Source of the DNA: a virus
Lineage: Duplodnaviria > Heunggongvirae > Uroviricota > Caudoviricetes
IMG/VR virus record: IMGVR_UViG_2731957841_000001
Location: 1 to 19,805 of that record
Reading direction: 5' to 3' (one strand)
DNA: 19,805 nucleotides
How positions within the stretch are numbered: position 1 is the stretch's first letter; every line of letters starts with the position of its first letter. This document shows positions 94 through 19,739 of the stretch, one piece after another. The notes under the pieces were generated by a model, which was not told where the DNA came from, did not search any database, and saw only the letters and a list, made by a program, of their open reading frames with translations. A program made the translations under genes and the position numbers.

Positions 94-116
94 CGCTGCC
101 GCCACTTTGTCGCCAT
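94..116. repeat. Putative attL core: 23-bp direct repeat CGCTGCCGCCACTTTGTCGCCAT, matching 19717..19739 at 22/23
   Basis: Repeat read directly from the sequence; copies sit just outside the int-side cargo and immediately after the ogr stop, where P2-family att sites are expected. Confidence 0.55.
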
Positions 117-871
117 TAAGAAGGTGATGACTGGTCTTTGATAGCTAGAAGTCCCCATGAGAAAACTTCTTTGGCATCGCTTATTAAACCATCCTCTATA
201 AATTGCTGTGTCTCAGCCCATTCCATATCACTGACATAGTGTACTAGCGTATTTGTCTGGATTGGGATTTCTTCAAATTGCTCGATTCGACGTTTGAAAC
301 TACATTCAGGATCTGAACAACGGCATGTGCGTCTTATATCATCTACCCTACAGAGTAAAAGGGAGTAGGGGGTCTCAAGTGGTGCACAGTAGTCAACCCG
401 ATAGTTATGAGATCGTGTTGGCTGGATGTTATGAAGGGGATCTAAAAGCACAATATTAAAAATTTGGTTCTCATCCCAAAAGCCAACAACTCTACCAAGG
501 GCAGTAGATATCTGAAATTGTAGTAAGGGGTATTCTTCGTCATTTTCAAGGTAATCAGTGTCAATCCATGTCAACTGGCTACGTTGTACGGGTATATTTC
601 TTTGTTCCCAGTTTATTGAATGATAGCGCCATGCCTCTCTATCGGCCCCACTGGTAATAAAGCCTTTGACATCTTTTTGAGAAAGCTCAGATAATTTTCC
701 AATTAGTGAAACAAACCAGCCTGAATTGGTACGGTCTAACCCAAAATTATCAATTTGACGCCAATAACGAAAAGAAAATGCCCACTTTTTTTCGGGTGCA
801 GAGGGCGTTTTTGGGGTCTGTGCCGCTGTTGGTTGATTTGCCCCTAATGAAGGGCGGTAGGCGTTCACCAT
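116..871 (-). CDS. Hypothetical 251-aa protein, candidate toxin/effector partner of the upstream Panacea-domain protein
   Basis: Long ORF whose ATG (869..871) lies 5 nt after the stop of the upstream gene on the same strand; no strong SD, so translational coupling is plausible. Low-complexity P/A/T/Q-rich N-terminus and a C-x8-C-x-C-x4-C cluster. No family recognised. Confidence 0.55.
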   Translation of the reverse strand: MVNAYRPSLGANQPTAAQTPKTPSAPEKKWAFSFRYWRQIDNFGLDRTNSGWFVSLIGKLSELSQKDVKGFITSGADREAWRYHSINWEQRNIPVQRSQLTWIDTDYLENDEEYPLLQFQISTALGRVVGFWDENQIFNIVLLDPLHNIQPTRSHNYRVDYCAPLETPYSLLLCRVDDIRRTCRCSDPECSFKRRIEQFEEIPIQTNTLVHYVSDMEWAETQQFIEDGLISDAKEVFSWGLLAIKDQSSPS

Positions 872-876
872 GGCTA

Positions 877-1344
877 TTAATTTAATCGGCTACGATAAAA
901 GTCTCTTGTTATGTTGCGATCGATGACTACTTCACAACGTGCTGAAGGTCTGTAACCCTCACGAGCCTTAATCCATGGTTCTTCTTTATGAGTCATATCT
1001 TCAAGTTGTGCGCCAGAAAAAGCACCGTAGACTTCAAGAACGCCATCAATATGAGCTGCGGTTGCGGCTGGAATGGATGAAAGATCAAACCCAGGAGTGC
1101 GATCTGCAATCGTTATGTCCGAATACAGTGATTTTGTAGAAGAGAACCGGTTATAAATCGCACGGCTTACTGGGCCATGAATCCAAGCTTGAAACTCCTC
1201 ATCCACTAACTTTTTATCGAAAAAAGCTAGATACCAAGCATCTGCGTAATAAGCTAATTTTTGCAGCTTCAAATTAGACATAGTTTCACCTGAAGCTAAG
1301 ATTTTTGTGATGATGTAATCACATAATTGGTTAATATTTATCAT
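877..1344 (-). CDS. Panacea/DUF4065-like protein (SocA/PanA antitoxin-type)
   Basis: 155 aa; N-terminal region SNLKLQKLAYYADAWYLAFF...FQAWIHGPV matches, from memory, the conserved LKLQKLLYY..W core of DUF4065 proteins. GAGGGA RBS about 7 nt upstream of the ATG. Confidence 0.65.
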   Translation of the reverse strand: MININQLCDYIITKILASGETMSNLKLQKLAYYADAWYLAFFDKKLVDEEFQAWIHGPVSRAIYNRFSSTKSLYSDITIADRTPGFDLSSIPAATAAHIDGVLEVYGAFSGAQLEDMTHKEEPWIKAREGYRPSARCEVVIDRNITRDFYRSRLN

Positions 1345-1509
1345 TATTTATCCCTCTAGGCTTGGTGTCTAAGCAGCCAATCTTATTAAAGATATCGACC
1401 GTTAGAAATCTTTGAATACCAAGTTAACTTATAGTGGCATACATAGCTGAATAAATCGAGATTCAAACGTGCTAAAATGTGATGAATATGGATGAGCAGT
1501 GCTTTCATT

Positions 1510-2529
1510 TTACGTAGTTACCATAGTTGCTAATGGATTAAAACGTAGCGCTGTTTCTAGGTGGTCAGGAGCCAGATGAGCATAGCGCATGGTCATTTTT
1601 ATGTCGTGATGCCCAAGGATTTTCTGCAGAGCCAGGATGTTTCCGCCGGACATCATAAAGTGTGCTGCGAACGTATGACGCAGAACGTGTGTTAGCTGAC
1701 CGCGTGGAAGCACAATAGAAGTCTTATCCATTACAGATAAAAACTGGAAGTAGCAGTCAGTGAAGAAATTGAAACCGTCTAGGGCAATGATTTCCTCATA
1801 CAGCTCTTTGCTAATCGGAATGCTTCGGTTCTTTTTGCCTTTGGTCCTGACGAATGTGATCCGGTATTTCGTAACCTGAGAACGGGTTAGGTTCACAGCT
1901 TCGCGCCAGCGTGCTCCGGTGCTCAGACAGATTTTAACGACAAGAGCGAGCAGGGGACTTTGGCGGTTGCAGTCGTACAATAGCTCGGTAATTTGTTCAT
2001 GCGTCAGCCAGGCCATCTCCTTTTCTGCGATGGTGAATTTTCGCATGTTCTCCAGTGGGTTCGGATACGACCATTCGCCCAGGCGGGATAGTTCGCTAAA
2101 AACACTACTTAGATAGCTTTGCTCCAGGTTAATGGTGACCGGGCTTGCTCCTTTCTTCCATTTCTCGCTGAAGTAGATCTCGCCTGTCAGGCGTTTATCT
2201 CGATAGTGGGCAAACATTTTAGAGGTGAGATCAGTTGCAAGGGGATTGCCCAGAGCGTCAACCATCAGCAGCAATTTGTCATAGACATGCTGCCCAGCAG
2301 TCAGTGATTTACCATGTAGTTTGAACCATAGCTCAACCACGTCTTTTAGTGTTCGACGATCCACTGATTCACCTAGCCAGGGCTTTGCTTCGGTTTCTTC
2401 CATCGTGTGACGCTCAAAAGCCAGTGCTTCGCCTTTGGTGGCGAATTGTTTACGCACACGACGCCCACTACGTCCGGCGGGGTAACATTCGCAAAGCCAT
2501 TTTCCTGTGGTGAGTTTTCGTACAGCCAT
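1510..2529 (-). CDS. int: Tyrosine recombinase / phage integrase (P2/186 Int-like)
   Basis: C-terminal catalytic motifs (LSTGARWREA, HVLRHTFAAHFM, MTMRYAHL) and overall resemblance to P2 Int. Start moved to the internal ATG at 2529 (MAVRKLTTGKW...), which has a GGAGGG RBS; the upstream extension of the ORF is probably not translated. Confidence 0.9.
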   Translation of the reverse strand: MAVRKLTTGKWLCECYPAGRSGRRVRKQFATKGEALAFERHTMEETEAKPWLGESVDRRTLKDVVELWFKLHGKSLTAGQHVYDKLLLMVDALGNPLATDLTSKMFAHYRDKRLTGEIYFSEKWKKGASPVTINLEQSYLSSVFSELSRLGEWSYPNPLENMRKFTIAEKEMAWLTHEQITELLYDCNRQSPLLALVVKICLSTGARWREAVNLTRSQVTKYRITFVRTKGKKNRSIPISKELYEEIIALDGFNFFTDCYFQFLSVMDKTSIVLPRGQLTHVLRHTFAAHFMMSGGNILALQKILGHHDIKMTMRYAHLAPDHLETALRFNPLATMVTT

Positions 2530-2717
2530 AAAAAATGCCCTCCAATAGAGAGCATTTTTACTGTATGTATAACCAGTGTCAATATATGAAATCCTGCGAC
2601 CATACATCTCACTGAAGCCATAATGAAGTAGGCTATTCTTTTTGCTATGTGAGCATGTAACTTTTGCGGTTAACCTGTGGCTCATTTTTATTTTAGGCGC
2701 AGATATAAAAGCAAAAG

Positions 2718-2909
2718 TTATCGTGAGTTTTTAGTACAGATTTTTTTGGATTTACTAATAGTTCCATCATTGCAAACGAATTTGCCATCTGAGGTACAGT
2801 GAGAAACACCTCCCTTTTTCCCTGAGCAGGGATAATTTCTAGCATAGGTAGCTAGTGGGTTTAATAACAAAGAACATGACAAAACCACAAAAAATACCTT
2901 ACCAAGCAT
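2718..2909 (-). CDS. Small secreted Cys-rich protein (63 aa), moron-like ORF between cI and int
   Basis: Strong GGAGG RBS 5-6 nt upstream of the ATG; N-terminus [23 protein letters not shown] looks like a Sec signal peptide; basic mature part with 4 Cys. AT-rich relative to flanking genes. Confidence 0.5.
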
Positions 2910-2924
2910 AATTTCCTCCCGGTA

Positions 2925-3494
2925 CTATTTAACATACTTGACTGTTAAACTTATAATTTTACCAATTATTTCAATGTCTTCTATCTTGCATTCGAAGGCT
3001 CTGTTTCCACCCTCGACGAAGATTCTTCCACCGGGTAAACGAGTAATGTCACGGATCGTTATTTCGCCATCAATACTTATTACCCATTTACCATCACGTA
3101 TATCATCAAATTCCTTATCACAAATAAATTCAGAATTATTATCTGTGATTACAAAAAGATTCTTGAATGCCGACGGTAGAAATTCTCTATCGAAAATATA
3201 AAAACCGTCTTCACACAAGGCCCCATCAGATAATACATATTTAGCAACTTCCATAGTATTTGTATTACCTGAAGTTTGCTTTGAACCATGCCCGGTTGTG
3301 AGCCAATTAAGCGAGGTGCCTGTTTCAAGGGCGCACTGGATTACCCATTCTGCTGGGAATGAGTCACGCATGTAGCGTGTGGCGAGTGTACTTTTAGAGA
3401 TTCCTAAATGATCGCACAACGCCTGTCGAGTCTTGAATCCATAAGCTTCTACCATGCGCTCTATAGCGCCTCGTCCGCCTTTCTCCAAATTCAT
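2925..3494 (-). CDS. cI: CI-type immunity repressor (coliphage 186 CI-like)
   Basis: Motifs VEAYGF...LGISKSTLATRYMR...CALETGTSLNWLTTGHG match my recollection of 186 CI; sits upstream of int on the same strand and faces apl/cII. Start taken at ATG 3494 with a GGAGTG RBS (the ORF track begins at a GTG two codons earlier). Confidence 0.75.
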   Translation of the reverse strand: MNLEKGGRGAIERMVEAYGFKTRQALCDHLGISKSTLATRYMRDSFPAEWVIQCALETGTSLNWLTTGHGSKQTSGNTNTMEVAKYVLSDGALCEDGFYIFDREFLPSAFKNLFVITDNNSEFICDKEFDDIRDGKWVISIDGEITIRDITRLPGGRIFVEGGNRAFECKIEDIEIIGKIISLTVKYVK

Positions 3495-3518
3495 GGTCAC
3501 TCCAAGTGAACTTTTATC

Positions 3519-3574
3519 TTGACGATTTCACTGTGCGATCGTATGTTTATGGTGTTCACAAAATACAAACGATC
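3519..3574 (+). promoter_or_regulatory. Candidate lytic promoter pR (-35 TTGACG 3519..3524, 17-bp spacer, -10 TATGTT 3542..3547) overlapping an imperfect inverted repeat (GATCGTATGT 3537..3546 / ACAAACGATC 3565..3574), a putative operator
   Basis: Hexamers and spacing read from the sequence; position between cI and apl fits a 186-type switch region. Operator assignment is inference. Confidence 0.4.
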
Positions 3575-3619
3575 CGTATTCGTCCTGATTAATCATCATT
3601 AAACGAGGAATGTTGCATC

Positions 3620-3873: not shown

Positions 3874-4383
3874 ATGTTTGATTACCAAGTTTCCAAACAT
3901 CCACATTTTGATGAATCCTGTCGTGCATTCGCATTGCGCCACAACCTGGTGCAACTGGCAGAACGTGCTGGCATGAATGTGCAGATTCTGCGGAACAAGT
4001 TGAACCCAGCTCAACCTCATTTATTAACCGCACCAGAAATCTGGCTGCTTACCGATCTGACTGAAGATTCAACGCTGGTAGATGGTTTTCTGGCTCAGAT
4101 TCACTGCCTGCCATGCGTACCGATTAATGAGGTGGCAAAAGAGAAACTGCCACATTACGTCATGAGTGCAACCGCAGAGATCGGGCGTGTTGCTGCAGGT
4201 GCGGTATCTGGCGATGTAAAAACCAGTGCAGGTCGTCGTGATGCTATCAGCAGCATTAACTCTGTAACACGACTGATGGCGTTGGCTGCTGTTTCATTGC
4301 AGGCCCGTTTACAGGCTAACCCTGCGATGGCGAGTGCAGTTGATACCGTGACTGGCCTCGGTGCTTCATTTGGTTTGCTGTGA
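3874..4383 (+). CDS. cII: CII-like lysogeny establishment regulator (186 CII-like)
   Basis: 169 aa from ATG 3874 (AGAGG RBS 8 nt upstream); [23 protein letters not shown]... closely matches my recollection of 186 CII. Confidence 0.8.
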
Positions 4384-4390
4384 GGTGCTT

Positions 4391-4687
4391 ATGCTGACGA
4401 AAGAACCATCATTTGCATCGCTGCTGGTAAAACAAAGCCCGGCAATGCACTACGGTCACGGCTGGATCACGGGTGAGGATGGAAAACGCTGGCATCCATG
4501 TCATTCACAAGATGAATTGCTGTCTGAATTGACCACGAGGAAACGGAGAAAGTCCAAATGTATGCGGCAGAAAGTGAAGTGGTTTATCAGTTTCGTTACA
4601 GAGGGGAGAGTTATTCAGTACCTGAAGATGATTTGCTCTGTTGCTATCCGTCATTGTCGGGCGATGGCAGTTACTTTTTCACGTTAA
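4391..4687 (+). CDS. Hypothetical early protein; its 3' part overlaps the next ORF out of frame
   Basis: ATG 4391 with a GAGGTG RBS just after the cII stop; the distal part of the translation is Cys/Arg-rich and unconvincing. Confidence 0.3.
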   Translation: MLTKEPSFASLLVKQSPAMHYGHGWITGEDGKRWHPCHSQDELLSELTTRKRRKSKCMRQKVKWFISFVTEGRVIQYLKMICSVAIRHCRAMAVTFSR

Positions 4688-4804: not shown

Positions 4805-5146
4805 ATGGCAATTAATGGCGCTGCAGCGACTGTTCCATTAAGCCCCGGTGAACGCCTGAATGGACTTAATCACATTGCGGAGTTAAGGGCGAAAGTGTTT
4901 GGCCTGAATATTGAGTCAGAGCTTGAGCGGTTTATTAAAGATATGCGTGATCCACGGGATATCAATAATGAACAAAATAAACGGGCACTGGCTGCCATAT
5001 TCTTTATGGCAAAAATTCCAGCTGAACGTCATAGCATCAGCATTAATGAGCTGACCACTGACGAAAAGCGGGAGTTGATTAAAGCAATGAATCATTTTCG
5101 TGCAGTGGTGAGCTTATTTCCCAGACGGCTAACCATGCCGAATTAA
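4805..5146 (+). CDS. Hypothetical early protein (113 aa)
   Basis: ORF with a GGGGGA RBS 8 nt upstream of the ATG; same strand and operon context as the other early genes. Confidence 0.5.
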   Translation: MAINGAAATVPLSPGERLNGLNHIAELRAKVFGLNIESELERFIKDMRDPRDINNEQNKRALAAIFFMAKIPAERHSISINELTTDEKRELIKAMNHFRAVVSLFPRRLTMPN

Positions 5147-5213
5147 CCAACTAATGAAATTAATGGCGTAAACCCGCCGGGCATCCCTTTATCTAAATTC
5201 AGGAGAATTGATT

Positions 5214-5447
5214 ATGCGTAATATTGAAACCCTCACGACTAAAACCGGACCGGATGACGCAGGGCTTAATATTTTACTGACAGAGGCTCGTCTGGAAGAA
5301 CGCCGGGCAAGGGCTGAAGCAATGGCTGCCCGCCTTGATAGTCTTGCGTGTCATATCACATCCCGCCAGCTAAACCACGTCGAAGCGGCAGAACTGCTGC
5401 GTGTGACCGCTGAAGCAATCCAGAACGAAGCGCAGGAGATCCACTAA
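5214..5447 (+). CDS. Hypothetical early protein (77 aa)
   Basis: Start taken at ATG 5214 with an AGGAG RBS at 5201..5205 (the ORF track begins at TTG 5208, too close to the RBS). Stop overlaps the next start (TAATG). Confidence 0.5.
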   Translation: MRNIETLTTKTGPDDAGLNILLTEARLEERRARAEAMAARLDSLACHITSRQLNHVEAAELLRVTAEAIQNEAQEIH

Positions 5448-5674
5448 TGGCTGATGCAATGGATCTCGTACAGCAGCGCGTTGAAGAAGAACGCCAGCGC
5501 CATATCCGTGCTGCCCGTGCCAAAACACCGGGCGTGTCTCGCGTGCTTTGTATTGAATGTGAAGCGCCAATTCCGCCAGCACGCCGCCGCGCCATTCCTG
5601 GAGTGCAGCTTTGCATTACCTGCCAGGAAATCGCAGAGCTGAAAGGCAAACATTACAACGGAGGTGCTGTATGA
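5447..5674 (+). CDS. TraR/DksA-family C4 zinc-finger protein
   Basis: 75 aa with CIECEAP...CITCQ (C-x2-C ... C-x2-C), typical of the small TraR-like proteins in P2-family early operons. Confidence 0.65.
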   Translation: MADAMDLVQQRVEEERQRHIRAARAKTPGVSRVLCIECEAPIPPARRRAIPGVQLCITCQEIAELKGKHYNGGAV

Positions 5675-6528
5675 GCACCATCCTGAAATGGGCGGGTAAT
5701 AAAACCGCCATTATGTCCGAACTGAAAAAATACCTTCCTGCTGGCCCGCGACTGGTTGAACCTTTCGCGGGTTCTTGTGCTGTGATGATGGCGACGGATT
5801 ACCCCAGCTATCTGGTTGCGGATATTAATCCTGATTTAATCAACCTCTATAAAAAGATTGCCGCTGATTGCGAAGCGTTTATATCTCGTGCCAGAGTTTT
5901 ATTTGAGGAAGCAAACAGTGAGCTGGCTTATTACAACATAAGACAGGAGTTTAATTACTCAACTGAAATTACTGATTTCATGAAGGCGATATATTTCCTG
6001 TATCTCAATCGTCACGGTTACCGTGGTTTATGTCGCTATAACAAGAGCGGGCATTTCAACATTCCCTACGGTAATTATAAAAATCCGTATTTCCCTGAAA
6101 AAGAAATTCGCGCATTTGCAGAGAAAGCCCCGCGGGCAACGTTTATCTGCGCCAGCTTTGATGAAACGCTGGCGATGTTGAAGGCGGGGGATGTGGTGTA
6201 TTGCGATCCGCCGTATGACGGTACGTTTTCCGGCTATCACACTGATGGTTTCACTGAAGATGACCAGTATCACCTGGCATCCGTTCTTGAACATCGGTCA
6301 TCAGAAGGTCATCCGGTCATTGTTTCTAACAGTGACACATCCCTGATTCGTTCGCTGTATCGCAATTTCACTCACCACTACATCAAGGCAAAACGCAGCA
6401 TCGGCGTGTCGGCTGGCGAGAGTAAATCTGCAACAGAAATCATTGCTGTTTCCGGGGCGCGCTGCTGGGTGGGATTTGATCCTTCGCGTGGCGTGGATAG
6501 TTCTGCTGTGTACGAGGTGCGTGTATGA
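5671..6528 (+). CDS. dam: DNA N6-adenine methyltransferase (Dam-like)
   Basis: Start at ATG 5671 (GGAGG RBS). N-terminal ILKWAGNK and PFAGSCAV (AdoMet-binding motif I) plus the catalytic DPPY motif ([10 protein letters not shown]). Stop overlaps the A start (ATGA). Confidence 0.8.
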
Positions 6529-8939
6529 GTCATGCCGATATGAGCGACTCTAGCGGCTTTAACGAGGCCGCTGCAGCATTTTCATGGAACGGCCCGAAAA
6601 AGGCCATAAACCCTTATCTGGACCCGGCGGAAGTTGCGCCGGTTTCTGCGCTTTCAAACCTGATCACTCTGTATGCTGCCGATAACGAGCAGGAACAGCT
6701 GCGCCGCGAGGAATTGAGTGAACAGGTCTGGGAGCGTTATTTCTTTAATGAATCCCGTGATCCTGTCCAGCGCGAAATGGAGCAGGATAAGCTCATTAGT
6801 CGGGCAAAGCTGGCGCATGAGCAGCAGCGTTTTAACCCGGACATGGTCATTCTGGCGGACGTCAGCGCCCAGCCCACCCACATCAGCAAGCCGCTGATGC
6901 AACGTATCGAATACTTCAGCAGCCTGGGCAGGCCAAAGGCTTATTCCCGCTATTTGCGTGAGACGATTAAGCCATGTCTGGAGCGACTGGATTGTGTACG
7001 CGACAGTCAGCTATCTACTTCTTTCCGTTTTATGGCAAGCCATCAAGGGCTGGAGGGCCTGCTGATCCTGCCTGAAATGAGTCAGGATCAGGTGAAACGC
7101 CTGTCCACCCTGGTAGCTGCGCATATGAGCATGTGTCTTGAGGCCGCTTGTGGTGATTTGTATACCAACGATGACGTAAAGCCAGAAGAAATCCGCAAGA
7201 CATGGGAAAAGGTGGCAGCGGAAACCCTGCGTCTGGATGTTATCCCGCCTGCGTTTGAGAAACTTCGTCGGAAAAGAAACCGCCGCAAACCTGTGCCCTA
7301 TGAACTCATACCGGGTTCGCTGGCACGTATGCTTTGCGCCGACTGGTGGTATCGAAAATTGTGGAAGATGCGTTGCGAATGGCGGGAAGAGCAGTTGCGT
7401 GCTGTCTGTCTGGTCAGCAAAAAAGCATCTCCCTATGTCAGCTATGAAGCCGTGATGCATAAACGTGAGCAGCGCCGCAAGTCGCTGGAGTTTTTCCGTT
7501 CTCATGAACTGGTGAACGAAGACGGAGACACGCTGGATATGGAAGATGTGGTAAACGCCAGCAGCAGCAACCCGGCACATCGCCGCAATGAGATGATGGC
7601 CTGCGTTAAAGGTCTGGAGCTTATCGCGGAAATGCGCGGTGACTGCGCCGTTTTCTACACCATCACATGTCCGTCACGTTTCCATTCCACGCTCAATAAC
7701 GGCAGGCCCAACCCGACCTGGACAAATGCGACGGTAAGACAAAGCAGCGATTATCTGGTCGGCATGTTTGCTGCATTTCGTAAGGCGATGCACAAAACCG
7801 GGTTGCGCTGGTATGGCGTACGGGTGGCTGAGCCGCACCATGACGGTACTGTGCACTGGCATCTCATGTGTTTCATGCGCAAAAAAGACCGCCGCGCCAT
7901 TACTGCATTGTTGCGTAAGTTTGCCATCCGTGAAGACCGCGAGGAGCTGGGCAATAACACGGGCCCACGCTTTAAGTCTGAGCTGATAAACCCACGCAAA
8001 GGAACGCCGACAAGCTACATCGCAAAATACATCAGTAAGAACATTGACGGGCGTGGTCTGGCTGGCGAGATCAGCAAGGAAACGGGTAAATCCCTGCGTG
8101 ATAACGCCGAATACGTTAATGCCTGGGCGTCTCTGCATCGTGTTCAGCAGTTCCGCTTCTTTGGTATTCCGGGGCGCCAGGCTTACCGTGAACTGCGATT
8201 GCTGGCTGGTCAGGCGGCAAGACAACAGGGTGACAAAAAAGCAGGTGCGCCGGTACTGGATGATCCGCGTCTTGATGCCATCCTGGCTGCTGCTGATGCT
8301 GGTTGTTTTGCCACCTACATCATGAAGCAGGGCGGCGTACTGGTTCCCCGCAAATATCACCTTATCAGAACAGCTTATGAAATTAACGAAGAGCCGACTG
8401 CCTATGGCGATCACGGTATTCGTATTTATGGCATCTGGTCACCCATTTCAGAGGGCAAGATCTGCACTCATGCAGTGAAGTGGAAAATGGTTCGTAAGGC
8501 CGTTGACGTTCAGGAGGCGGTAGCCGACCAGGGCGCTTGCGCCCCTTGGACTCGTGGCAATAACTGTCCCCTTGCTGAAAATTTGTACCAACAAGGGAAA
8601 GACAAATCAGCTGATGGGGGCTCCAGAACGGACATTACCCGCATGGATGACAAGGAATTGCACGATTACCTGCACAGTATGAGCAAAAAAGATCGCCGGG
8701 AGCTGGCAGCAAGGTTGCGCTTGGTGAAACCGAAACGGCGTAAAGACTACAAACAGCGAATTACAGATCATCAGCATCAGCAGCTCGTCTATGAACTGAA
8801 GTCCAGAGGATTTGATGGCAGCGAGAAAGAAGTCGATTTGCTCCTTCGCGGTGGCAGTATTCCGTCAGGAGCAGGCTTGCGTATCTTCTATCGGAACCAG
8901 CGTTTGCGGGAAGATGATAAGTGGCGGAACCTGTATTAA
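6525..8939 (+). CDS. A: Rolling-circle replication initiator (P2 gene A-like HUH endonuclease)
   Basis: 804 aa; HUH-type motif ([10 protein letters not shown]) and paired active-site tyrosines ([10 protein letters not shown]); size and position match P2/186 gene A. Confidence 0.85.
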
Positions 8940-9030: not shown

Positions 9031-9050
9031 ATACTGTAAATATAAACAGT
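9031..9050 (+). promoter_or_regulatory. LexA (SOS) box TACTGTAAATATAAACAGTG overlapping a promoter (-35 TTTACA 9008..9013, -10 TATACT 9029..9034)
   Basis: Perfect CTGT-N8-ACAG with an AT-rich centre, directly upstream of the small ORF and DinI-like operon. Confidence 0.6.
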
Positions 9051-9092
9051 GGTTATGTATACAGCATTTCTTGTGGTGTCATAGGAGGAAAG

Positions 9093-9281
9093 ATGCAGGA
9101 CTATTTTTTGGAGTCTTTGAAGCTCCAGCGCATTGATTTTTTTCTTAAGCTTGTAGCGGCTAGTGAGTGTAGTGATGAAGAGAAGGGGCTGGCTTTGCAG
9201 TGGGTTTCTGAACTAACAGATGAACTCATGGCAAAAATCAGAACCCACGAATACAACCGCTCAATGGATGTCATCAGTTGA
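9093..9281 (+). CDS. Small hypothetical protein (62 aa) in the position of a 186 Tum-type antirepressor
   Basis: AGGAGG RBS 4-5 nt upstream of ATG 9093. The longer track ORF starting at 8991 is rejected because the promoter and LexA box lie inside it. Confidence 0.45.
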   Translation: MQDYFLESLKLQRIDFFLKLVAASECSDEEKGLALQWVSELTDELMAKIRTHEYNRSMDVIS

Positions 9282-9291
9282 GGTGACTTTT

Positions 9292-9525
9292 ATGCGCATT
9301 GAAATAATGATCGATAAAGAGCAGAAGATTAGCCAGTCTATCCTGGACGCCCTTGAATCCGAGCTTTACCGCAATCTGCGCCCCCTGTATCCCAAAACGG
9401 TAATTCGTATCCGCAAAGGTAGCTCTAACGGTGTGGAACTGACCGGACTGCAACTGGACGAAGAAAGAAAACAAGTGATGAAAATTATGCAGAAGGTGTG
9501 GGAAGACGACAGCTGGCTGCATTAA
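9292..9525 (+). CDS. DinI-family protein
   Basis: MRIEIMIDKEQ...ILDALESELYRNL...VWEDDSWL aligns along its length with E. coli DinI as I recall it (MRIEVTIAK...IDALAGELSRRI...TWESADDWF). GAGGTGA RBS. Confidence 0.8.
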   Translation: MRIEIMIDKEQKISQSILDALESELYRNLRPLYPKTVIRIRKGSSNGVELTGLQLDEERKQVMKIMQKVWEDDSWLH

Positions 9526-10322: not shown

Positions 10323-10637
10323 TGAATTGTGACCCCGTCTTTTTTAGAGAAATACTATTGATGAATGTAGTTTACGTATTTTTTTATTGAGTAGTCAAGT
10401 TAGTATTCTGCTCGTTATTGGCTGTTTTTTGAGTGTTGTGAGTTAGTACTTTGTGTAGTACCTCTTGGTTTATGAGGGTTAAATCTAAGTTATGACAAAG
10501 GGAGGCAGGGGGAACGCGCAGCGCAAGGTGTACAGGAGGCCATAAGGACTCACTTGAAGTAAGAAAAGATCGATAAAGCAACAATGCATGTCTATGCCGC
10601 ATGAATTCGCATGATCGTTTGAGGATCGTTTTAGCTG

Positions 10638-10708: not shown

Positions 10709-10727
10709 GGCGTGGCGGGGATACGAG
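10709..10727. other. cos-like motif GGCGTGGCGGGGATACGAG
   Basis: First 13 nt match the 186 cohesive end as I recall it (GGCGTGGCGGGGAAAGCAT; P2 is GGCGAGGCGGGGAAAGCAC). It is a GC-rich island in AT-rich spacer between the A-side cargo and Q. Confidence 0.35.
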
Positions 10728-12580: not shown

Positions 12581-13609
12581 CTATGCAAGGTTATATTCAT
12601 TAAATTGCATTATTGGCTCCTTTATCCATTCATTTACTTCTTGAAGCCTTTTTTGCAATGGAATTAGCTCATTACGGACAAAGACCCTGCTGGCTTTCTC
12701 CACATCCCCAAATCCCCCGACATTATTTGGCATTATCCCCATCATTTGTGGCGGCACACGATGCGCAGCCATCATGTCATCCCGGCTCACGTTCTTGATA
12801 TTCAGAAACTCATCCTTCGCCGCGACTTCTGACAACGGGATGATCTGAAGCCCGTCCTTTTTGCCGTTAGGCGAGTACATAAACAGGTTGCGGAAGTTGC
12901 CAGGGCCTTTGGCGCTTTTCATCGCATTGCGGAGGTTGTTCACATCCTCCTGGTTCTGCGCGGCATCGGTCATGTACATGATGAAGCCTGCATGACTGCC
13001 GTTAATGTAATACTTCCGGCGGAACAGCGTGGCGGACTCGTTGAGCAGGGCTGACGGAATGGCAGAAAGATAACCTGGCAGGCCGTAGATCTCCTGGTTG
13101 ATGTCAGGTTCCATCAGATGAAAAATGCTGCCTTTCGTGAACTGATACGGCTGGGTTGTCATACCGTATTGCACAAACCAGTAGGTATCCAGGTCTAACC
13201 CGCGTCGGGTGTATTTTGCCAGCGCAGGCTCAAGGGCTATAACTTCACCGAATCGGTTCGTGCGTTTCTCCAGGTAGGCGTTACCAAATACCAGATAGTC
13301 CTGCACAAAACGCGAAAAAGCCTGTTGGCTGAGCAGCGGATGAGGGATATAGGTACTGGTCAGAATGTTGCACTTTACTGCAATCGGGGAACTGTGATGC
13401 ACGGCAGCCCGGAAGGTGCGCGCCAGTCCGTCAAAACTTACGGGTGGCTCATACCAGCGATCCGTCTGTACGCATTCCACATAGTCCAGCAGTTCGCGGC
13501 GGTCCAGTACAGGAATGGGATCACCAAAGCTGAAAGCTTCGGCTGAAGTTTGATTTTTATGCTGGCTCCGTTTCGTCGCAGCAGCGCGGTTTTTCTTACT
13601 CTTTCCCAT
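12581..13609 (-). CDS. Q: Portal protein (P2 gpQ-like)
   Basis: 342 aa from ATG 13609 (the track starts one codon earlier at TTG); directly downstream of the terminase gene with a TGATG stop/start overlap, as in the P2 PQ operon. Confidence 0.85.
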   Translation of the reverse strand: MGKSKKNRAAATKRSQHKNQTSAEAFSFGDPIPVLDRRELLDYVECVQTDRWYEPPVSFDGLARTFRAAVHHSSPIAVKCNILTSTYIPHPLLSQQAFSRFVQDYLVFGNAYLEKRTNRFGEVIALEPALAKYTRRGLDLDTYWFVQYGMTTQPYQFTKGSIFHLMEPDINQEIYGLPGYLSAIPSALLNESATLFRRKYYINGSHAGFIMYMTDAAQNQEDVNNLRNAMKSAKGPGNFRNLFMYSPNGKKDGLQIIPLSEVAAKDEFLNIKNVSRDDMMAAHRVPPQMMGIMPNNVGGFGDVEKASRVFVRNELIPLQKRLQEVNEWIKEPIMQFNEYNLA

Positions 13610-15375
13610 CAAAAAATCTCCACAATATTGCTGGTATTGGCGGACTCGCCCTGCAGCGGTTCGTTAAACAGTGCGTGCATTGTTGCCCAGGCCAGATCGG
13701 CGTGGCTGGCTTCTTCGCTGCGGCTAGCTTCATAGGTCGGGCGGTTGCCGCTGGCGGTGGTGGCGCGACGGATTGCCATGAATGACTGCGCAATGTCGGT
13801 GTGCCCGGCGTCAAACTCCAGACGGCGGTGGCTGATAATGTCGTAGGCCTTGAGTACCAGGGCGTTTTTAACGTTGGGGTTGTAGACAAACTCCCGGACG
13901 GCAGGAAAGAACGCTTTCACGTTCTCATAAACCCCGTGACCGACGCCTGTCGAGTCGATGCCGATATAGGTCACGTTGTACTGCTCGGTCAGTTTTTTGA
14001 TTGCATCAGCCTGGGCGCGGAAGTCCATCCCGCGCCACTGGTGACGCTCAAGAATGCGAAACTTACCGCCTGGCACGGCTGGCGGTGCCACCACCACGCA
14101 TCCGGCGCTGTCGCCATTCTGCGTACCTTTTGCCGGGTCATAACCGATCCACACCTCGCGCCAGCCAAACGGGCGCAGGGCCAGTGCATGAAAGTCGGTC
14201 CAGACTTCCCAACTGTCCACCATGCACGCCTGCAGCTCGCTGAGCGGAAACACGGATGCGAGATCGTCCACAAACTCGCACATCAGCAGGTTCTGGTATT
14301 CGTCCGGGCTGTACTCCATGCGTAGCTGGTCGAGGTCGAACAGGTTACAGCCGCCGCGCACCGCATCTTCCACGGTGACTATCTGGCGGTATTGCCCGTC
14401 TGCGCACAGCAGGCCGGGGGCCAGATTGCTGTGGGACAGGTCGATGTCCACCTTATCGGCTTTGTTGCGCCCACGGTTGAACAGCGCACCGGACCAGAAC
14501 GGATAAGCACTGTGTGTCAGACTGGATGGCGTGGAAAAATAGGTTTGTCGCCATTTTTTGTGAATAGCCATACCGGAAGCCACTTTGCGCAGCTCCTGGA
14601 ATTTCGGTATCCAGAAATATTCATCCAGATACAGGTTGCCGTGGTAACTCTGGGCCGTGCGGGCATTGGTGCCGAGGAAGTAAAGCGTGGCCCCGTTAGG
14701 AAGCACCATCGGATCGCCTTTCAGCTCCACCTCCACTTCTTTGGCAAAGTCGATGATGTACTGTTTAAAGACGTGGGCCTGAGCCTTGCTGGCAGAAAGG
14801 AAAATCTGGTTACGCCCGGTCAGCAGGGCGTCAATCAGGGCTTCACGGGCAAAGTAAAAGGTCGCGCCGATCTGGCGTGACTTCAGCAGGTTGCGGATGC
14901 GGTTGGTTTTTCCGGCTTCCCACCAGTGGCGCTGGTAGTTGAACATAGAGGAATGGAAGATTTCTTCCAGTTTCTCAATCTGTTCATCGGTGAAAACATT
15001 CTTTTCCGGCTGACGACGTGGGCCTTTGTTGCGGTTGGCAACGTTAGGGTTTAAGTCGGCTTCGTTGCCGCCATTGTTAAACTTGCCGATCCGCGCGTGG
15101 CGCTCAGACTGGCGTGCCAGCAGGTCAATTTCTTTGAAATCTTTCCCTTCTTTGTGCTCCTTCATAATGAGCTGGCAGTAGCGTGCGGCGGTGGTGAGCT
15201 GCATCTGATCCAGCGGCCCATAGTCACCCCACTTGTCGCGTTTTTTCCAGCTGTGAACGGTTGCAACTTTCTCGCCCAGCATTTCAGCAATGCGGGCGAC
15301 GCGGTATCCCTGAAAGTACAGCAGCATGGCCTGCCGACGGGGATCGAGATCTGCGGGTGTCAGTGTGGTGTTCAT
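13609..15375 (-). CDS. P: Terminase large (ATPase) subunit (P2 gpP-like)
   Basis: 588 aa; N-terminus (LDPRRQAMLLYFQGYRVARIAEMLG...HSWKKRDKW) and size match P2 gpP; followed by Q on the same strand. Confidence 0.85.
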   Translation of the reverse strand: MNTTLTPADLDPRRQAMLLYFQGYRVARIAEMLGEKVATVHSWKKRDKWGDYGPLDQMQLTTAARYCQLIMKEHKEGKDFKEIDLLARQSERHARIGKFNNGGNEADLNPNVANRNKGPRRQPEKNVFTDEQIEKLEEIFHSSMFNYQRHWWEAGKTNRIRNLLKSRQIGATFYFAREALIDALLTGRNQIFLSASKAQAHVFKQYIIDFAKEVEVELKGDPMVLPNGATLYFLGTNARTAQSYHGNLYLDEYFWIPKFQELRKVASGMAIHKKWRQTYFSTPSSLTHSAYPFWSGALFNRGRNKADKVDIDLSHSNLAPGLLCADGQYRQIVTVEDAVRGGCNLFDLDQLRMEYSPDEYQNLLMCEFVDDLASVFPLSELQACMVDSWEVWTDFHALALRPFGWREVWIGYDPAKGTQNGDSAGCVVVAPPAVPGGKFRILERHQWRGMDFRAQADAIKKLTEQYNVTYIGIDSTGVGHGVYENVKAFFPAVREFVYNPNVKNALVLKAYDIISHRRLEFDAGHTDIAQSFMAIRRATTASGNRPTYEASRSEEASHADLAWATMHALFNEPLQGESANTSNIVEIF

Positions 15376-15424: not shown

Positions 15425-15943
15425 GTGGTTGAAGGACTTTCAGTTGCGGGGCCAACTGCAGCTTATGAATTTCATGCCCGAAGCGCCGACGGTCGGGTGG
15501 CGGATGCCAGTGCAACCAGCCCGGCACCTGCAGAGGTGGTGCTGACTGTCCTTAGCCGCGAAGGCGATGGAACTGCAGAAAAAGACCTGCTGGACGTGGT
15601 GGAAAAAGCTCTGAACAGTGAGAACGTCCGCCCGGTGGCTGACCGTCTTACGGTTCGCAGCGCAGAAATCATCCCGTATCGCGTGGAAGCCACCATTTTT
15701 CTCTATCCGGGACCGGAAGCAGAGCCGGTAATGGCAGCGGCAAAAGCCAGTCTGCAGAAGTACATTGCCAGCCAGACGAGGCTTGGTCGGGATATTCGCC
15801 GTAGCGCCATCTTTGCTGCTCTGCATGTTGAGGGTGTTCAACGTGTGGAACTGGCTTCTCCGCTGGCGGATGTGGTCCTGAACAAAACACAGGCGGCATC
15901 ATGTACGCAGTGGAGCGTAACCAACGGAGGAACGGATGAATAG
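15425..15943 (+). pseudogene. J: Baseplate protein J, C-terminal fragment only
   Basis: Translation resembles the C-terminal part of P2-type gpJ (RPVADRLTVRSAEIIPYRVEATIFLYPG...IFAALHVEGVQRVEL), and its stop overlaps the next start as at the P2 J/I junction. It begins about 50 bp after the P start codon, so O-N-M-L-lysis-R-S-V-W and the J N-terminus are absent. Confidence 0.6.
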
Positions 15944-17828
15944 TCTGCTGCCACCGGGTTCAACTTCACTGGAGCGCCGACTGGCGCAAACCTGTAGCGG
16001 GATTTCTGATTTGCAGGTGCCGCTGCGTGACTTGTGGAATCCGGCTATCCAGCGTGTGCTGGAGAAGGTGAACGCACTGCCGCAGGACAAGCGTCTGTCT
16101 GCCATGACCATGTTGTTTGGTAAAGAGTTTGGCGATGACGCGGCGAAACTGGCAAACAACCTGCCGGAACTACAGCGCCAGCTAAAACTGACAGCGGGCA
16201 ATGATGCGCTCGGTTCCATGCAGAAAGAATCCGACATCAACAAGGACTCACTTTCTGCTCAGTGGTTGCTGGTTAAAACCGGAGCGCAGAATACCTTCAG
16301 CAGCCTGGGCGAAACGCTGCGCCAGCCGCTGATGGATATTCTGTACACGGTGAAAAGCGTTACGGGAGCGTTGCGTCGCTGGGTGGAAGCTAACCCGGAA
16401 CTGACGGGCACACTGATGAAAGTAGCCGCTATTGTGGCTGCGGTTACCGTCGGCCTCGGCACCTTGGCTGTGGCGCTGGCTGCAGTGCTGGGGCCGCTGG
16501 CAGTCATCCGTCTGGGATTCTCTGTGCTGGGCATCAAAACGTTACCTTCCGTTACGGCAGCAGTAACACGAACCAGCAGCGCGTTGTCCTGGCTGGCTGG
16601 CGCACCACTGGCACTGCTGCGACACGGGCTTGCTTTATCGGGTAACGCAGCGGGTTTACTTACTGCGCCGTTGTCGTCTTTGCGCCGTACGGCATCACTG
16701 ACGGGAAATGTCCTGAAAACTGTTGCAGGTGCGCCGGTTGCACTTTTGCGGTCTGGATTATCCGGTTTACGTGCGGTTGCTGTGATGTTTATGAATCCTC
16801 TGGCGGTACTGCGCGGTGGACTGACCGCCGCAGGTACGGTGCAGCGAGTACTGGCATCTGGTCCACTGGCGATGCTGCGCGTTGCCCTGTATGCCATATC
16901 TGGTCTGTTAGGTGCTCTGCTCAGTCCGATAGGTCTAGTGGTTACTGCACTGGCAGGCGTGGCGCTGGTTGTCTGGAAATACTGGCAACCCATCACCGCA
17001 TTTCTCGGTGGCGTGGTGGAGGGATTCAAAGCGGCGGCAGGTCCCGTCAGTGCCGCATTCGAACCACTTAAGCCTGTGTTCCAGTGGATTGGCGACAAAG
17101 TGCAGGCGCTGTGGGGCTGGTTTACTGACCTGCTGACGCCCGTTAAGTCGACCTCTGCCGAACTGCAGAGTGCAGCGGCAATGGGGCGACGATTCGGGGA
17201 GGCTCTGGCGGAAGGGCTGAATATGGTCATGCATCCGCTGGACTCCCTGAAATCCGGCGTTTCCTGGTTGCTGGAGAAACTCGGCATTGTCAGTAAAGAG
17301 GCCGCAAAGGCAAAACTACCGGAAAGCGTGACGCGTCAGCAACCTGCGACGGTGAATGCAGACGGCAAAGTGATGATGCCATCGGGTGGTTTTCCATCAT
17401 GGGGATATGGCTTTGCGGGGATGTATGACAGCGGCGGGTATATCCCGCGCGGGCAGTTTGGCATCGTCGGTGAAAACGGGCCGGAAATTGTTAACGGCCC
17501 GGCAAATGTGACCAGCCGGAGAAATACAGCTGCACTGGCTGCCGTTGTTGCCGGAATGATGGGCGTTGCTGCCGCGCCAGCAGAGCTTCCACCGTTGCAC
17601 CCTTTGGCACTTCCCGCGAAAGGTGGAGAAGCAATTGTGAGTCGCGCAGCCACTGTGCCGCTCGTTCAACGGATTGAGGCACCGACGCAGATCATCATTC
17701 AGACGCAGCCAGGACAAAGTGCGCAGGATATTGCGCGGGAGGTGGCACGCCAGCTTGATGAACGTGAACGCAGGCTGAAGGCAAAAGCCAGGAGTAACTA
17801 CAGCGATCAGGGGGGATACGACGCATGA
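15936..17828 (+). CDS. T: Tail tape measure protein, truncated; the first ~37 codons look like the N-terminus of tail protein I (in-frame deletion fusion)
   Basis: N-terminus LLPPGSTSLERRLA...VPLRDLWNP resembles the gpI start, then switches to tape-measure-like sequence with degenerate PLAxLRxGL repeats and the C-terminal MYDSGGYIPRGQFGIVGENGPEIV motif. Stop overlaps the U start (ATGA). Confidence 0.65.
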   Translation: MNSLLPPGSTSLERRLAQTCSGISDLQVPLRDLWNPAIQRVLEKVNALPQDKRLSAMTMLFGKEFGDDAAKLANNLPELQRQLKLTAGNDALGSMQKESDINKDSLSAQWLLVKTGAQNTFSSLGETLRQPLMDILYTVKSVTGALRRWVEANPELTGTLMKVAAIVAAVTVGLGTLAVALAAVLGPLAVIRLGFSVLGIKTLPSVTAAVTRTSSALSWLAGAPLALLRHGLALSGNAAGLLTAPLSSLRRTASLTGNVLKTVAGAPVALLRSGLSGLRAVAVMFMNPLAVLRGGLTAAGTVQRVLASGPLAMLRVALYAISGLLGALLSPIGLVVTALAGVALVVWKYWQPITAFLGGVVEGFKAAAGPVSAAFEPLKPVFQWIGDKVQALWGWFTDLLTPVKSTSAELQSAAAMGRRFGEALAEGLNMVMHPLDSLKSGVSWLLEKLGIVSKEAAKAKLPESVTRQQPATVNADGKVMMPSGGFPSWGYGFAGMYDSGGYIPRGQFGIVGENGPEIVNGPANVTSRRNTAALAAVVAGMMGVAAAPAELPPLHPLALPAKGGEAIVSRAATVPLVQRIEAPTQIIIQTQPGQSAQDIAREVARQLDERERRLKAKARSNYSDQGGYDA

Positions 17829-18310
17829 TGATGGTGCTGGGATTGTACGTGTTTATGCTGCGCACCGTTCCGTATCAGGAACTGCAGTATCAACGCAGCT
17901 GGCGACATGCGGCAAACAGTCGGGTAAACCGACGTCCGTCCACGCAGTTTCTGGGACCGGAAAACGACATGCTGACGCTTTCCGGTGTTCTTATGCCGGA
18001 GATAACAGGCGGCAGGCTGTCGTTGCTGGCACTGGAGCAGATGGCAGAACAGGGGAAAGCATGGCCCCTGATTGAAGGCAGCGGCATGATTTACGGCATG
18101 TATGTGATTGAGGGACTGAATCAGACTAAAACGGAGTTTTTCCGCGACGGTATGCCGCGCCGGATTGAGTTCACCCTGTCGCTCAAACGAGTGGATGAAT
18201 CCCTGTCCGATATGTTCGGTGATCTCAGTGCGCAACTGAATAATCTGCAGGACACGGCAACGTCTGCCTTAAGCGATATCAGTAAAACGGTGGGAGGGCT
18301 GCTGTCGTGA
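17825..18310 (+). CDS. U: Tail protein U (P2 gpU-like)
   Basis: 161 aa; N-terminus MMMVLGLYVFMLRTVPYQELQYQRSW matches my recollection of P2 gpU; position between T and D. Confidence 0.8.
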   Translation: MMMVLGLYVFMLRTVPYQELQYQRSWRHAANSRVNRRPSTQFLGPENDMLTLSGVLMPEITGGRLSLLALEQMAEQGKAWPLIEGSGMIYGMYVIEGLNQTKTEFFRDGMPRRIEFTLSLKRVDESLSDMFGDLSAQLNNLQDTATSALSDISKTVGGLLS

Positions 18311-19407
18311 ATTTCAGCTCAGAACTGCTTAACAAAGGCAACAAAACTCCCGCATTCAGCATCAGTATTGAGGGCAGGGATATCACCACAGTGCTGGATA
18401 ACCGCCTGATGAGTTTGACGCTGACGGATAACCGGGGCTTTGAAGCGGACCAGCTTGATCTGGAGTTGGATGACGCTGACGGAAAAATCGTGCTGCCGCG
18501 CCGTGGTGCGGTCATTACGCTGGCGCTGGGCTGGAAGGGGCAGCTGCTTTTCCCGAAAGGGGCATTCACAGTGGACGAGATTGAACACACTGGCGCACCG
18601 GACCGCCTGACTATCCGGGCGCGAAGTGCTGATTTTCGGGAAACGCTGAATACCCGCCGTGAAAAATCGTGGCATAAGACCACCGTCGGGGAAGTGGTGA
18701 AGGAAATAGCCGCGCGGCACAAGCTGAAGATGGCACTGGGTAAAGACCTGTCGGATAAGCCCGTGGAGCATATAGACCAGACTAATGAGAGTGACGGCAG
18801 TTTTCTGATGCGGCTGGCGCGACAATACGGTGCCATCGCGTCGGTGAAAAATGGCAATCTGTTATTCATCCGGCAGGGGCAGGGCAAAAGCGTCACTGGT
18901 AAACCTCTGCCAGTGATCACTATCACACGCAAGGACGGCGACAGTCACCGATTTACCCTGGCAGATCGCGGAGCCTACACGGGCGTAATTGCCAGCTGGT
19001 TGCATACCCGCGAACCTGCGAAGAAAGAAAGCACCACGGTGAAGCGTAAGCGCAGAACTAAGAAGCAGAAGAAAGAGCCAGAAGCGAAGCAGGGCGATTA
19101 CCTGGTGGGTACGGATGAAAACGTGCTGGTACTTAATCGCACTTATGCCAACCGGAGCAACGCCGAACGAGCGGCGAAAATGCAGTGGGAACGCCTGCAA
19201 CGCGGCGTTGCGTCATTTTCGCTACAACTGGCAGAAGGGCGGGCAGATCTCTACACGGAAATGCCTGTGAAGGTCAGTGGTTTTAAACAGCCGATAGATG
19301 ATGCGGAATGGACCATTACGACTCTGACACATACCGTCAGCCCGGATAACGGTTTTACAACCAGTATTGAACTCGAAGTGAAGATTGATGATTTCGAAAT
19401 GGAATGA
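18307..19407 (+). CDS. D: Tail/late gene D protein (P2 gpD-like)
   Basis: 366 aa; MNFSSELLNKGNKTPAFSISIEGRDIT... matches P2 gpD as I recall it; apparent GTG start overlapping the U stop (GTGA). Confidence 0.8.
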   Translation: MNFSSELLNKGNKTPAFSISIEGRDITTVLDNRLMSLTLTDNRGFEADQLDLELDDADGKIVLPRRGAVITLALGWKGQLLFPKGAFTVDEIEHTGAPDRLTIRARSADFRETLNTRREKSWHKTTVGEVVKEIAARHKLKMALGKDLSDKPVEHIDQTNESDGSFLMRLARQYGAIASVKNGNLLFIRQGQGKSVTGKPLPVITITRKDGDSHRFTLADRGAYTGVIASWLHTREPAKKESTTVKRKRRTKKQKKEPEAKQGDYLVGTDENVLVLNRTYANRSNAERAAKMQWERLQRGVASFSLQLAEGRADLYTEMPVKVSGFKQPIDDAEWTITTLTHTVSPDNGFTTSIELEVKIDDFEME

Positions 19408-19496
19408 TTCTTCGCAATGGAGAACTTTTAAGTTTGCAAAATGGAATAATGCGGTATCATTATTGTGAATTTAGCAAAAATGGGAGAACTCGAAAA

Positions 19497-19715
19497 ATGA
19501 TGATTTGCCCACTGTGTGGAAGTGCCGCCCATACTCGCAGCAGTTTTCAGGTATCTTCATTGACCAAAGAGCGTTACAACCAGTGCCAGAATATTAACTG
19601 CAGCCATACTTTTGTAACCCATGAAACTTTTGTTCGTTCGATTGCAACGCCAAAAGAGTCAAATCCGGTTCAGCCGCATCCAATGAAATCAGGACAGGTG
19701 GCGCTCTCTCTTTGA
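19497..19715 (+). CDS. ogr: Ogr-type zinc-finger late transcription activator
   Basis: 72 aa from ATG 19497; CPLCGSAAHTRSS...ERYNQCQNINCSHTF matches the P2 Ogr zinc-finger pattern; last gene before the right-hand repeat. Confidence 0.85.
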   Translation: MMICPLCGSAAHTRSSFQVSSLTKERYNQCQNINCSHTFVTHETFVRSIATPKESNPVQPHPMKSGQVALSL

Positions 19716-19716
19716 C

Positions 19717-19739
19717 GCTGCCGCCATTTTGTCGCCATC
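19717..19739. repeat. Putative attR core: CGCTGCCGCCATTTTGTCGCCAT, direct repeat of 94..116
   Basis: 22/23 identity with the left copy; starts 2 nt after the ogr stop codon. Confidence 0.55.

Follow-up and report, generated by a model that had tools for sequence, protein, structure and literature searches.

The element and its site of insertion

The stretch of DNA analyzed here (hereafter the window; positions 1 to 19,805 of IMG/VR virus record IMGVR_UViG_2731957841_000001) carries a prophage of the P2 family (Peduoviridae), the features of which are listed in Table 1. The gene order (int, lysogenic switch, A, cos, Q, P ... T, U, D, ogr) is syntenic with that of P2-family phages, Pfam matches of this family were obtained (GPA, portal, Terminase_6N/6C, Baseplate_J, GpU and Ogr_Delta), and the encoded proteins share 30-66% identity with their homologues in coliphages P2 and 186 and 93-100% with those of Klebsiella phage 4LV2017. 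A first-pass annotation of the window had listed the genes from int to ogr in an order that was broadly correct; its "T", however, is an in-frame fusion of the remains of genes I and T (I'-'T), a fragment of gene J (J') precedes this fusion, and several accessory genes had gone unmentioned. The Pfam matches and protein identities bear out its assignment of the prophage to the P2 family and of the immunity region to the 186 type, and the comparison with an intact sibling (19,805 bp vs. 34,525 bp) bears out its description of a reduced one.

Two nearly identical 23-mers lie close to the ends of the window and had been taken as the boundaries of the element. Host flanks obtained from contigs that encode window proteins show, on the left, the 3' end of rcdA (ybjK) and, on the right, the terminator of ybjL, beyond which lie ybjM, grxA and nfsA; the host of the element is Escherichia coli. 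The insertion point is located between rcdA and ybjL, where a 14-bp core, AACAAAAAACCCAT, overlaps the T-run of the ybjL terminator. The right attachment junction (attR; i.e., ogr end, 23-mer, core and ybjL flank) was found uninterrupted in 1111 of 5426 complete E. coli genomes, so that a P2-family prophage occupies the rcdA-ybjL site in approx. 20% of them, while the empty site (attB; reconstructed, 300 nt, free of the 23-mer) was intact in 4227. At an identity of at least 99%, the sole match to the window among complete RefSeq E. coli genomes is the intact prophage of strain 1297KP. A literature search gave no paper naming ybjL as an integration site of P2-like phages; the GenBank record of 4LV2017 does annotate the site. 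The finding as a whole is already known biology, i.e., a very common E. coli P2-family prophage in a defective form.

Overall, we consider it highly probable that the window represents one defective copy of a 186-type P2-family prophage, inserted at the rcdA-ybjL site by exchange within the core, in which the 23-mers are pairs of arm-type binding sites for the integrase (Int) and from which two blocks of the late region have been deleted.

Table 1. Features of the prophage in the window, by position (aa, amino acids; ORF, open reading frame; IHF, integration host factor)
Feature	Position	Strand	Remarks
P' arm next to the left attachment junction (attL)	1..116	.	the attL core copy ends with the T at base 1; its other bases, AACAAAAAACCCA, immediately precede the window
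Two 13-bp direct repeats AAAACAATAAGTT	21-33, 40-52 (region 21..53)	+	each one mismatch from the IHF consensus WATCAANNNNTTR
int relic	76..114	-	former int 3' end, encodes GDKVAAAVGITP and then a stop; displaced by cargo insertion
Left 23-mer, predicted P' arm pair	94..116	+	TGCCGCCACTT 97-107 and TGTCGCCAT 108-116, 11 bp apart; consensus match
orf251	116..871	-	cargo, no family match; absent from 4LV2017
Panacea-domain (SocA-like) antitoxin	877..1344	-	cargo; PF13274, E = 2e-19; NCBIfam SocA_antitoxin match below cut-off
Tyrosine integrase, 339 aa	1510..2529	-	Pfam Int_N and Phage_integrase; 186-type N-terminal arm-binding domain (W11, E14, Y16)
YdcA-family small protein	2718..2909	-	NCBIfam NF007463, E = 1e-33
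CI repressor, 186-type	2925..3494	-	PF07022 and PF16452; 33% to 186 CI; no P2 match
Apl/Cox-position gene, 73 aa	3620..3841	+	first gene of the early lytic operon; 85% to 4LV2017 gene
cII (3874-4383) and fil (4391-4687)	3874..4687	+	PF06892 and PF10893; 69% and 60% to 186 proteins
DUF5347, DUF2732, TraR/DksA zinc-finger and Dam-type N6-adenine methylase genes	4805..6528	+	
Replication endonuclease A	6525..8939	+	PF05840, E = 6e-128
LexA box CTGTAAATATAAACAG (9034-9049), orf62 (9093-9281), DinI/Tum-like gene (9292-9525)	9034..9525	+	SOS operon as in 186
orf176 and weak 72-aa ORF	9792..10602	-	A side of cos; GC 0.411
cos, GGCGTGGCGGGGATACGAG	10709..10727	+	in a conserved ~60-bp cos region; aligned by eye to 186 and P2 cos
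Old-type ATPase/TOPRIM nuclease	10859..12544	+	PADLOC Old, E = 1e-20; Pfam AAA_15, AAA_21, OLD-like_TOPRIM
Portal gene Q (12581-13609) and large terminase gene P (13609-15375)	12581..15375	-	intact ORFs
J' fragment	15425..15943	+	C-terminal 170 residues of baseplate protein J; Pfam Baseplate_J; 100% to 4LV2017 J C-terminus
Deletion 1 junction	15429..15431	.	7,280 bp lost, from P/O intergenic region to mid-J; 3-bp microhomology
I'-'T in-frame fusion, 630 aa	15936..17828	+	~37 residues of I and C-terminal 593 of tape measure protein
Deletion 2 junction	16045-16047		7,440 bp lost, from ~codon 37 of I to one third into T; in frame; 3-bp microhomology
Tail genes U and D	17825..19407	+	intact ORFs; F-operon promoter lost
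ogr/B-type zinc-finger late activator	19497..19715	+	PF04606; NCBIfam PRK09678 match
Right 23-mer, predicted P arm pair	19716..19738	+	TGCCGCCATTT 19719-19729 and TGTCGCCAT 19730-19738; just after ogr
IHF-like site AATCATGACGTTA	19758..19770	-	candidate; one mismatch from WATCAANNNNTTR; between arm sites and core
attR core copy AACAAAAAACCCA	19793..19805	+	14th base, T, is the first host base past the window

The attachment core and the 23-mers

The host flanks, the empty sites and a natural tandem dimer of the element all place the crossover core at the edges of the window, 93 bp outside the left 23-mer and approx. 54-67 bp outside the right one, which is where host homology ends. In the host-flanked copies the attL junction reads ...GGGTAGTAGATAAATTTTAGATAACAAAAAACCCA (also written ...TAGATAAATTTTAGATAACAAAAAACCCA) followed by TTTATG..., and the attR junction reads ...ATAAATTTCAGGCAACAAAAAACCCA followed by TCAACC.... 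The assignment of positions 1 to 116 to the P' arm is based on the host flank of locus L004, on identity with the attP found between the two copies of the dimer, and on homology to positions 27-141 of 4LV2017. Repeats at attL and attR that match attB were found at the core, not at the 23-mers. The match between the core and attB also extends leftwards, although imperfectly (24/27, from position 19780), and at the three mismatched positions attL carries the host variants and attR the phage variants, indicating that the exchange took place within the 14-mer.

A scan for the core with its ybjL flank, using one genome per species, returned 120 loci. The E. coli loci L035 and L053 are empty sites, in which rcdA runs directly into TAGATAA[A/G]TTTTAGAT-AACAAAAAACCCATCAACC, and the 23-mer was absent from each 8-kb locus at up to 4 mismatches. 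The expectation that the empty site should retain one copy of the 23-bp repeat therefore failed in these two loci as well as in the 4227 intact attB sites, and holds instead for the 14-bp core; related genomes with the same flanks place the junction at this core, and the 23-mers do not bound the element. A 724-bp contig (L082) from an assembly of Actinoallomurus acaciae also holds an E. coli-type empty rcdA-ybjL site; this contig is probably an enterobacterial contaminant. Escherichia phage vB_EcoM-813R9 (ON470620), considered as a virion-derived source of attP, proved to be a prophage record with rcdA flanks.

The dimer was found by a look-up of the J' fragment, which gave two matches with starts exactly 19,805 bp apart, i.e., the length of the window. 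Contig NNXA01000006.1 (GCA_002486185.1) carries two head-to-tail copies of the deleted element, both with both deletions, and their joint (locus L135, 10289-10500) corresponds to window positions 19713-19805 followed by 1-118, forming a contiguous attP with a single core and one 23-mer on each side. As recombination between the 23-mers would have given a period of 19,622 bp and a single 23-mer, the dimer provides direct evidence for the position of the exchange site. Since both copies are doubly deleted, it also indicates that Int-mediated recombination acted after the deletions had occurred. The dimer may have arisen by re-integration of an excised circle or by unequal exchange between attL and attR of sister chromosomes.

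With regard to the 23-mers themselves, the left copy (CGCTGCCGCCACTTTGTCGCCAT) and the right copy (CGCTGCCGCCATTTTGTCGCCAT) are identical at 22 of 23 positions. This repeat had been reported by the first-pass annotation and is real (no match with up to 3 mismatches was found in any of 200 dinucleotide-preserving shuffles), except that its right copy had been placed one base off, at 19717-19739. Each 23-mer consists of two TGYCGCCA octamers with starts 11 bp apart (TGCCGCCAcTT and TGTCGCCAT). Nilsson et al. described two arm-site consensus sequences, a P2-type one (tgTGGaCa) and a 186-type one (tgccGCCActt), with at least two sites of the 186 type on each side of the core, and proposed that N-terminal Int residues discriminate between them (W, E and Y in 186; Y, D and R in P2) (PMC3448106). 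In the window, two direct repeats of the tgccGCCActt type are present on each side of the core (19719-19738 and 97-116), and Int carries W11, E14 and Y16, identical to W11, E14 and Y16 of 186 Int, as compared to Y11, D14 and R16 of P2 Int. Overall, these matches identify the 23-mers as predicted 186-type Int arm-site pairs rather than the boundary of the element.

The position of the ogr-side pair is also conserved. In a gap-free alignment from the core of 26 distinct prophages inserted at the same attB in different genera, conservation was 1.56 bits per position in the 23-mer as compared to 0.27-0.36 bits in its flanks. These 26 prophages share a second conserved block, TAAgnnnnTGATTT, which is located between arm sites and core and represents the IHF consensus in reverse complement. 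This block corresponds to the IHF-like site AATCATGACGTTA of the window, and the IHF sites of 186 and P2 occupy the same position. On the other side, the two exact 13-bp repeats, 19 bp apart between core and P' arm sites, are candidate sites for IHF or another accessory factor, as judged from their match to the IHF consensus. Two further candidates were rejected: the 13-bp repeats as Apl/Cox operators, as no copies occur at the cI-apl switch, and a third, inverted arm site in the 3' end of ogr (GGTGGCG, approx. 19696-19702), which is a weak match and was not conserved in the 26-prophage comparison.

By analogy with 186 and P2, the N-terminal domain of Int would bind the arm pairs while its core domains would act on the 14-mer, and IHF would bend the DNA between arm and core such that an intasome forms. 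On integration, exchange within the core separates the two 23-mers, one going to attR (P arm) and the other to attL (P' arm). Several points weigh against this assignment. The Int and IHF sites are proposed from sequence match, position and conservation; an Apl-type operator array was looked for in the P' arm and none was identified; the protein at the apl position has neither detectable similarity to 186 Apl or P2 Cox nor a Pfam match; and the dimer comes from one draft assembly, in which an assembler loop through reads of an excised circle is possible. Such a loop, on the other hand, would require an active att/Int system equally.

The similarity of the 23-mers could also be a relic without function, e.g., of an ancient event in which the int 3' end was copied to the ogr side, as the left copy coincides with the 3' coding sequence of int in 4LV2017 and with the int relic in the window. 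We consider this very unlikely, because the ogr-side copy has kept its spacing to the core across 26 diverged prophages with randomized flanking sequence, the 23-mer fits the published consensus of 186-type arm sites (PMC3448106), and the Int of the window has the matching discriminator residues; moreover, the P' arm of P2 likewise overlaps the 3' end of int. That the 23-mers are a duplicated att core delimiting an element at 94-19739, which a near-terminal repeat so far beyond chance would seem to favor, deserves almost no credence given the empty sites, the ends of host homology and the dimer joint described above, and given that equivalent repeat pairs lie on both sides of the mapped core in phage 186.

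With the 23-mers read as arm pairs, a near-perfect terminal repeat in a P2-family prophage can be a pair of Int arm sites and not the att core, and boundaries called from the longest repeat may be off by approx. 60-90 bp per end. Beyond correct annotation, the importance of this result is small.

Two deletions in the late region

The window maps onto the prophage of E. coli 1297KP (NZ_CM173856.1, 3147021-3181545; 34,525 bp) in three collinear pieces with 3 single-nucleotide differences over the 19,805 common bases. The two prophages share insertion site, att arms and cargo (orf251 with the Panacea gene, and the Old-type nuclease). Unlike the window, the 1297KP prophage is intact, and it contains the 7,280- and 7,440-bp blocks with capsid, lysis, baseplate, fibre, sheath and tube genes as well as late promoters. 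In total, 14,720 bp are missing from the window, including genes O, N, M, L, X, holin, endolysin, spanins, R, S, V, W, H, G, FI, FII and E; in addition, J has lost half of its length, I the greater part and T one third, and a 619-bp island of J and I survives between the deletions. The complete set of structural and lysis genes by which a prophage is counted as complete and non-cryptic (PMC3448106) is hence not present. Retained are cos and, as intact ORFs, the immunity genes, the SOS/Tum circuit, int, A, Q, P, U, D, ogr and the cargo (Old-type nuclease, Panacea pair and Dam).

Deletion 1 breaks within the dyad (TGT-N12-ACA) that forms the activator site of the divergent late promoters of P and O, with TGTGTGGTTG and TCGGTACA meeting at the junction (window 15376-15431), and the dyads upstream of V and FI fall inside the deleted blocks. 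As all three Ogr-dependent late-promoter dyads are thus lost, the surviving Q, P, J', I'-'T, U and D are left without an Ogr-dependent promoter. With capsid, lysis and most tail genes gone as well, the element can neither make particles nor lyse the cell.

The double deletion is real and defines a lineage. The I'-'T fusion has been deposited as KRR49998.1 (E. coli VL2732), and the fusion was found on 65 contigs from NCBI, ENA and Logan. In one derivative (locus L134, Logan ERR15664131), a further deletion of 2,360 bp (window 16645-19004) fuses the I'-'T ORF to D, pointing to ongoing decay in this lineage. Intermediates with a single deletion were sought by the J' look-up and none was found. 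The sizes of the two deletions, 7,280 and 7,440 bp, are both exact multiples of 80, which is probably coincidence. In the intact sibling prophage L130, the segment 27063-28647, situated in a block lost from the window, contains a ClpP-like protease gene, a pseudogenized recombinase and incomplete tail-fibre-assembly genes that run in both directions; together they resemble what is left of an invertible tail-fibre segment.

The persistence of int, the apl-position gene, A, ogr and the SOS/Tum circuit as intact ORFs, together with cos, raises the question of whether the element still moves. We consider it improbable that the doubly deleted element is still recombinationally active and perhaps mobilizable by a helper phage through cos, A, int and ogr; the tandem dimer with its regenerated attP, which implies Int-mediated recombination after the deletions, is the sole hint of an incipient satellite. 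If true, the element, far from being a dead relic, would be on its way to becoming a satellite-like carrier of defence cargo. The more specific proposal that its reduced size was selected, and that it is a hitchhiker that excises, replicates and is packaged at cos by a co-resident P2-like helper, appears less probable still. The genome of 19.8 kb is approx. 59% of that of P2, and a monomer of this size fits neither P2-size nor P4-size capsids. The deletion breakpoints lie at microhomologies and interrupt genes and a promoter dyad, as would be expected from random decay, L134 has decayed further, and no satellite-type hijacking genes were found (i.e., no sid, psu, delta, primase-type or other satellite hijacking domains among the window proteins). 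A P4-like or other satellite was likewise rejected as the identity of the element, as replication is by a P2-type A protein and what is left of the structural genes represents truncated remnants of a complete phage.

That the prophage is in reality intact and its reduced size an artefact of assembly or data, as suggested by the multiples of 80 and by the match of only an intact prophage among complete RefSeq E. coli genomes, is highly improbable. The junction-spanning fusion protein is encoded on the 65 contigs, among them contigs of two independent read-based assemblies from Logan, the 3-bp microhomology at the junctions is too short for a k-mer assembler to jump across, and the third deletion of the derivative is not a multiple of 80.

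The element, a defective prophage that decayed by deletion, is a further example of a course in which immunity genes and defence cargo are kept while virion and lysis genes are lost; defective P2 elements that retain defence genes have already been described (PMC13586616). The dimer, which is of minor interest in this respect, suggests that Int/att activity can outlive the production of particles.

Lysogeny module, cargo and relatives

The lysogeny module is of the 186 type, with CI (CI_repr and CI_C), CII (CP76), Fil and a LexA-controlled Tum/DinI-like antirepressor; its proteins are 33-69% identical to those of 186 (41% for the Tum-like protein), with no similarity to C, Cox or B of P2. The LexA box upstream of orf62 and the DinI/Tum-like gene suggests that, like 186, the defective prophage has kept its link to the SOS response. 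The apl-position gene is presumed, by position only, to encode the excisionase and regulator. Int shows 97% identity to the Int of 4LV2017, 55% to that of 186 and 36% to that of P2.

The prophage had also been described as a P2/186 hybrid with a P2-type ogr, which our comparison did not support. Ogr is 55.2% identical to P2 Ogr and 54.2% identical to its homologue B in 186; Q, P, J', U and D show 48-66% identity to P2 or 186 alike, and the late proteins in general (approx. 37-66%) are equidistant from the two phages, while the lysogeny module matches 186 only. As phage 186 carries its own ogr homologue beside attP, the combination of a 186-type switch with an ogr-like gene is the normal layout of 186 and not a mosaic. 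On sequence identity, the element is placed in a separate 186-type lineage close to Klebsiella phage 4LV2017.

Phage 4LV2017 (NC_047818; Peduoviridae, Elveevirus) is the closest phage record, with approx. 95% identity over 72% of the window. Its annotated attL (8-27) and attR (33422-33440) both read CAGGCAACAAAAAACCCAT, and in the alignment window position 1 corresponds to its position 27 and window position 19805 to its position 33439. Both 23-mers are found in 4LV2017 as well, within these att sites, and the left copy is part of the 3' coding sequence of its int. Most of its proteins are 93-100% identical to those of the window, but CI is only 48% identical. Unlike the window, 4LV2017 is intact, has K. 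pneumoniae as its host, carries a retron instead of Old near cos, and lacks the cargo of orf251 and the Panacea gene; its int has therefore kept its C-terminal end, with which the P' arm sites overlap as they do in P2.

Coliphage 186 (NC_001317) shares the overall plan of the window, i.e., ogr/B, arm sites, IHF site, core, IHF or accessory sites, arm sites, a small cargo ORF, int, cI, apl, cII and fil, as well as the SOS-controlled Tum and the W, E and Y residues of Int. Its GenBank record lists predicted Int arm sequences (YAYCGCCAYTY, three to the left and two to the right of the core) as well as IHF footprints and five Apl sites, and places the small orf69 in the interval from attP to int. 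The arm pairs of 186 contain the CGCCA motif with 11-bp spacing (CACCGCCATTCTATCGCCAC on the left and TACCGCCACTTTATCGCCAT on the right) and are all direct. On the other hand, its proteins are only 33-69% identical to those of the window, the apl-position protein is unrelated in sequence, and the 14-bp core in the intergenic ybjL terminator distinguishes the window from 186. Coliphage P2 (NC_001895) resembles the window in late gene order, in an old-type gene near cos and in the plan of attP (P arm, IHF site, core, sites for the recombination directionality factor, and a P' arm overlapping the int 3' end). It differs from the window in its C/Cox switch, in arm sites of the TGTGGACA type, in the low identity of its Int and in the absence of cII, fil and tum homologues.

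The cargo module at 116-1509 has a low GC content (0.405 vs. 0.485 overall) and is located between the P' arm sites and int, where it replaces the C-terminal codons of int and occupies the position that orf69 has in phage 186. The product of orf251 had no match in Pfam, PADLOC or NCBIfam and is presumed to be the toxin partner of the adjacent Panacea antitoxin; this 251-aa protein could represent an uncharacterized toxin.

A cos of the P2/186 type is present between A and Q, in an island conserved with 4LV2017 (10586-10736) and with a flank closely similar to the cos region of 186. A defence hotspot close to cos between gpA and gpQ has been documented (PMC9122126); in the lineage described here, cos lies between A and the Old-type gene, which places this cargo between cos and Q. 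On the A side of cos, orf176 and the 72-aa ORF had no PADLOC, NCBIfam or Pfam match. The cos-proximal hotspot (window 9524-12650; positions 1-1350 of loci L004-L009) varies among otherwise near-identical siblings, its contents comprising the Old-type nuclease, GmrSD, Mrr_cat/ASCH and MC5/CTD9 proteins and, in 4LV2017, a retron.

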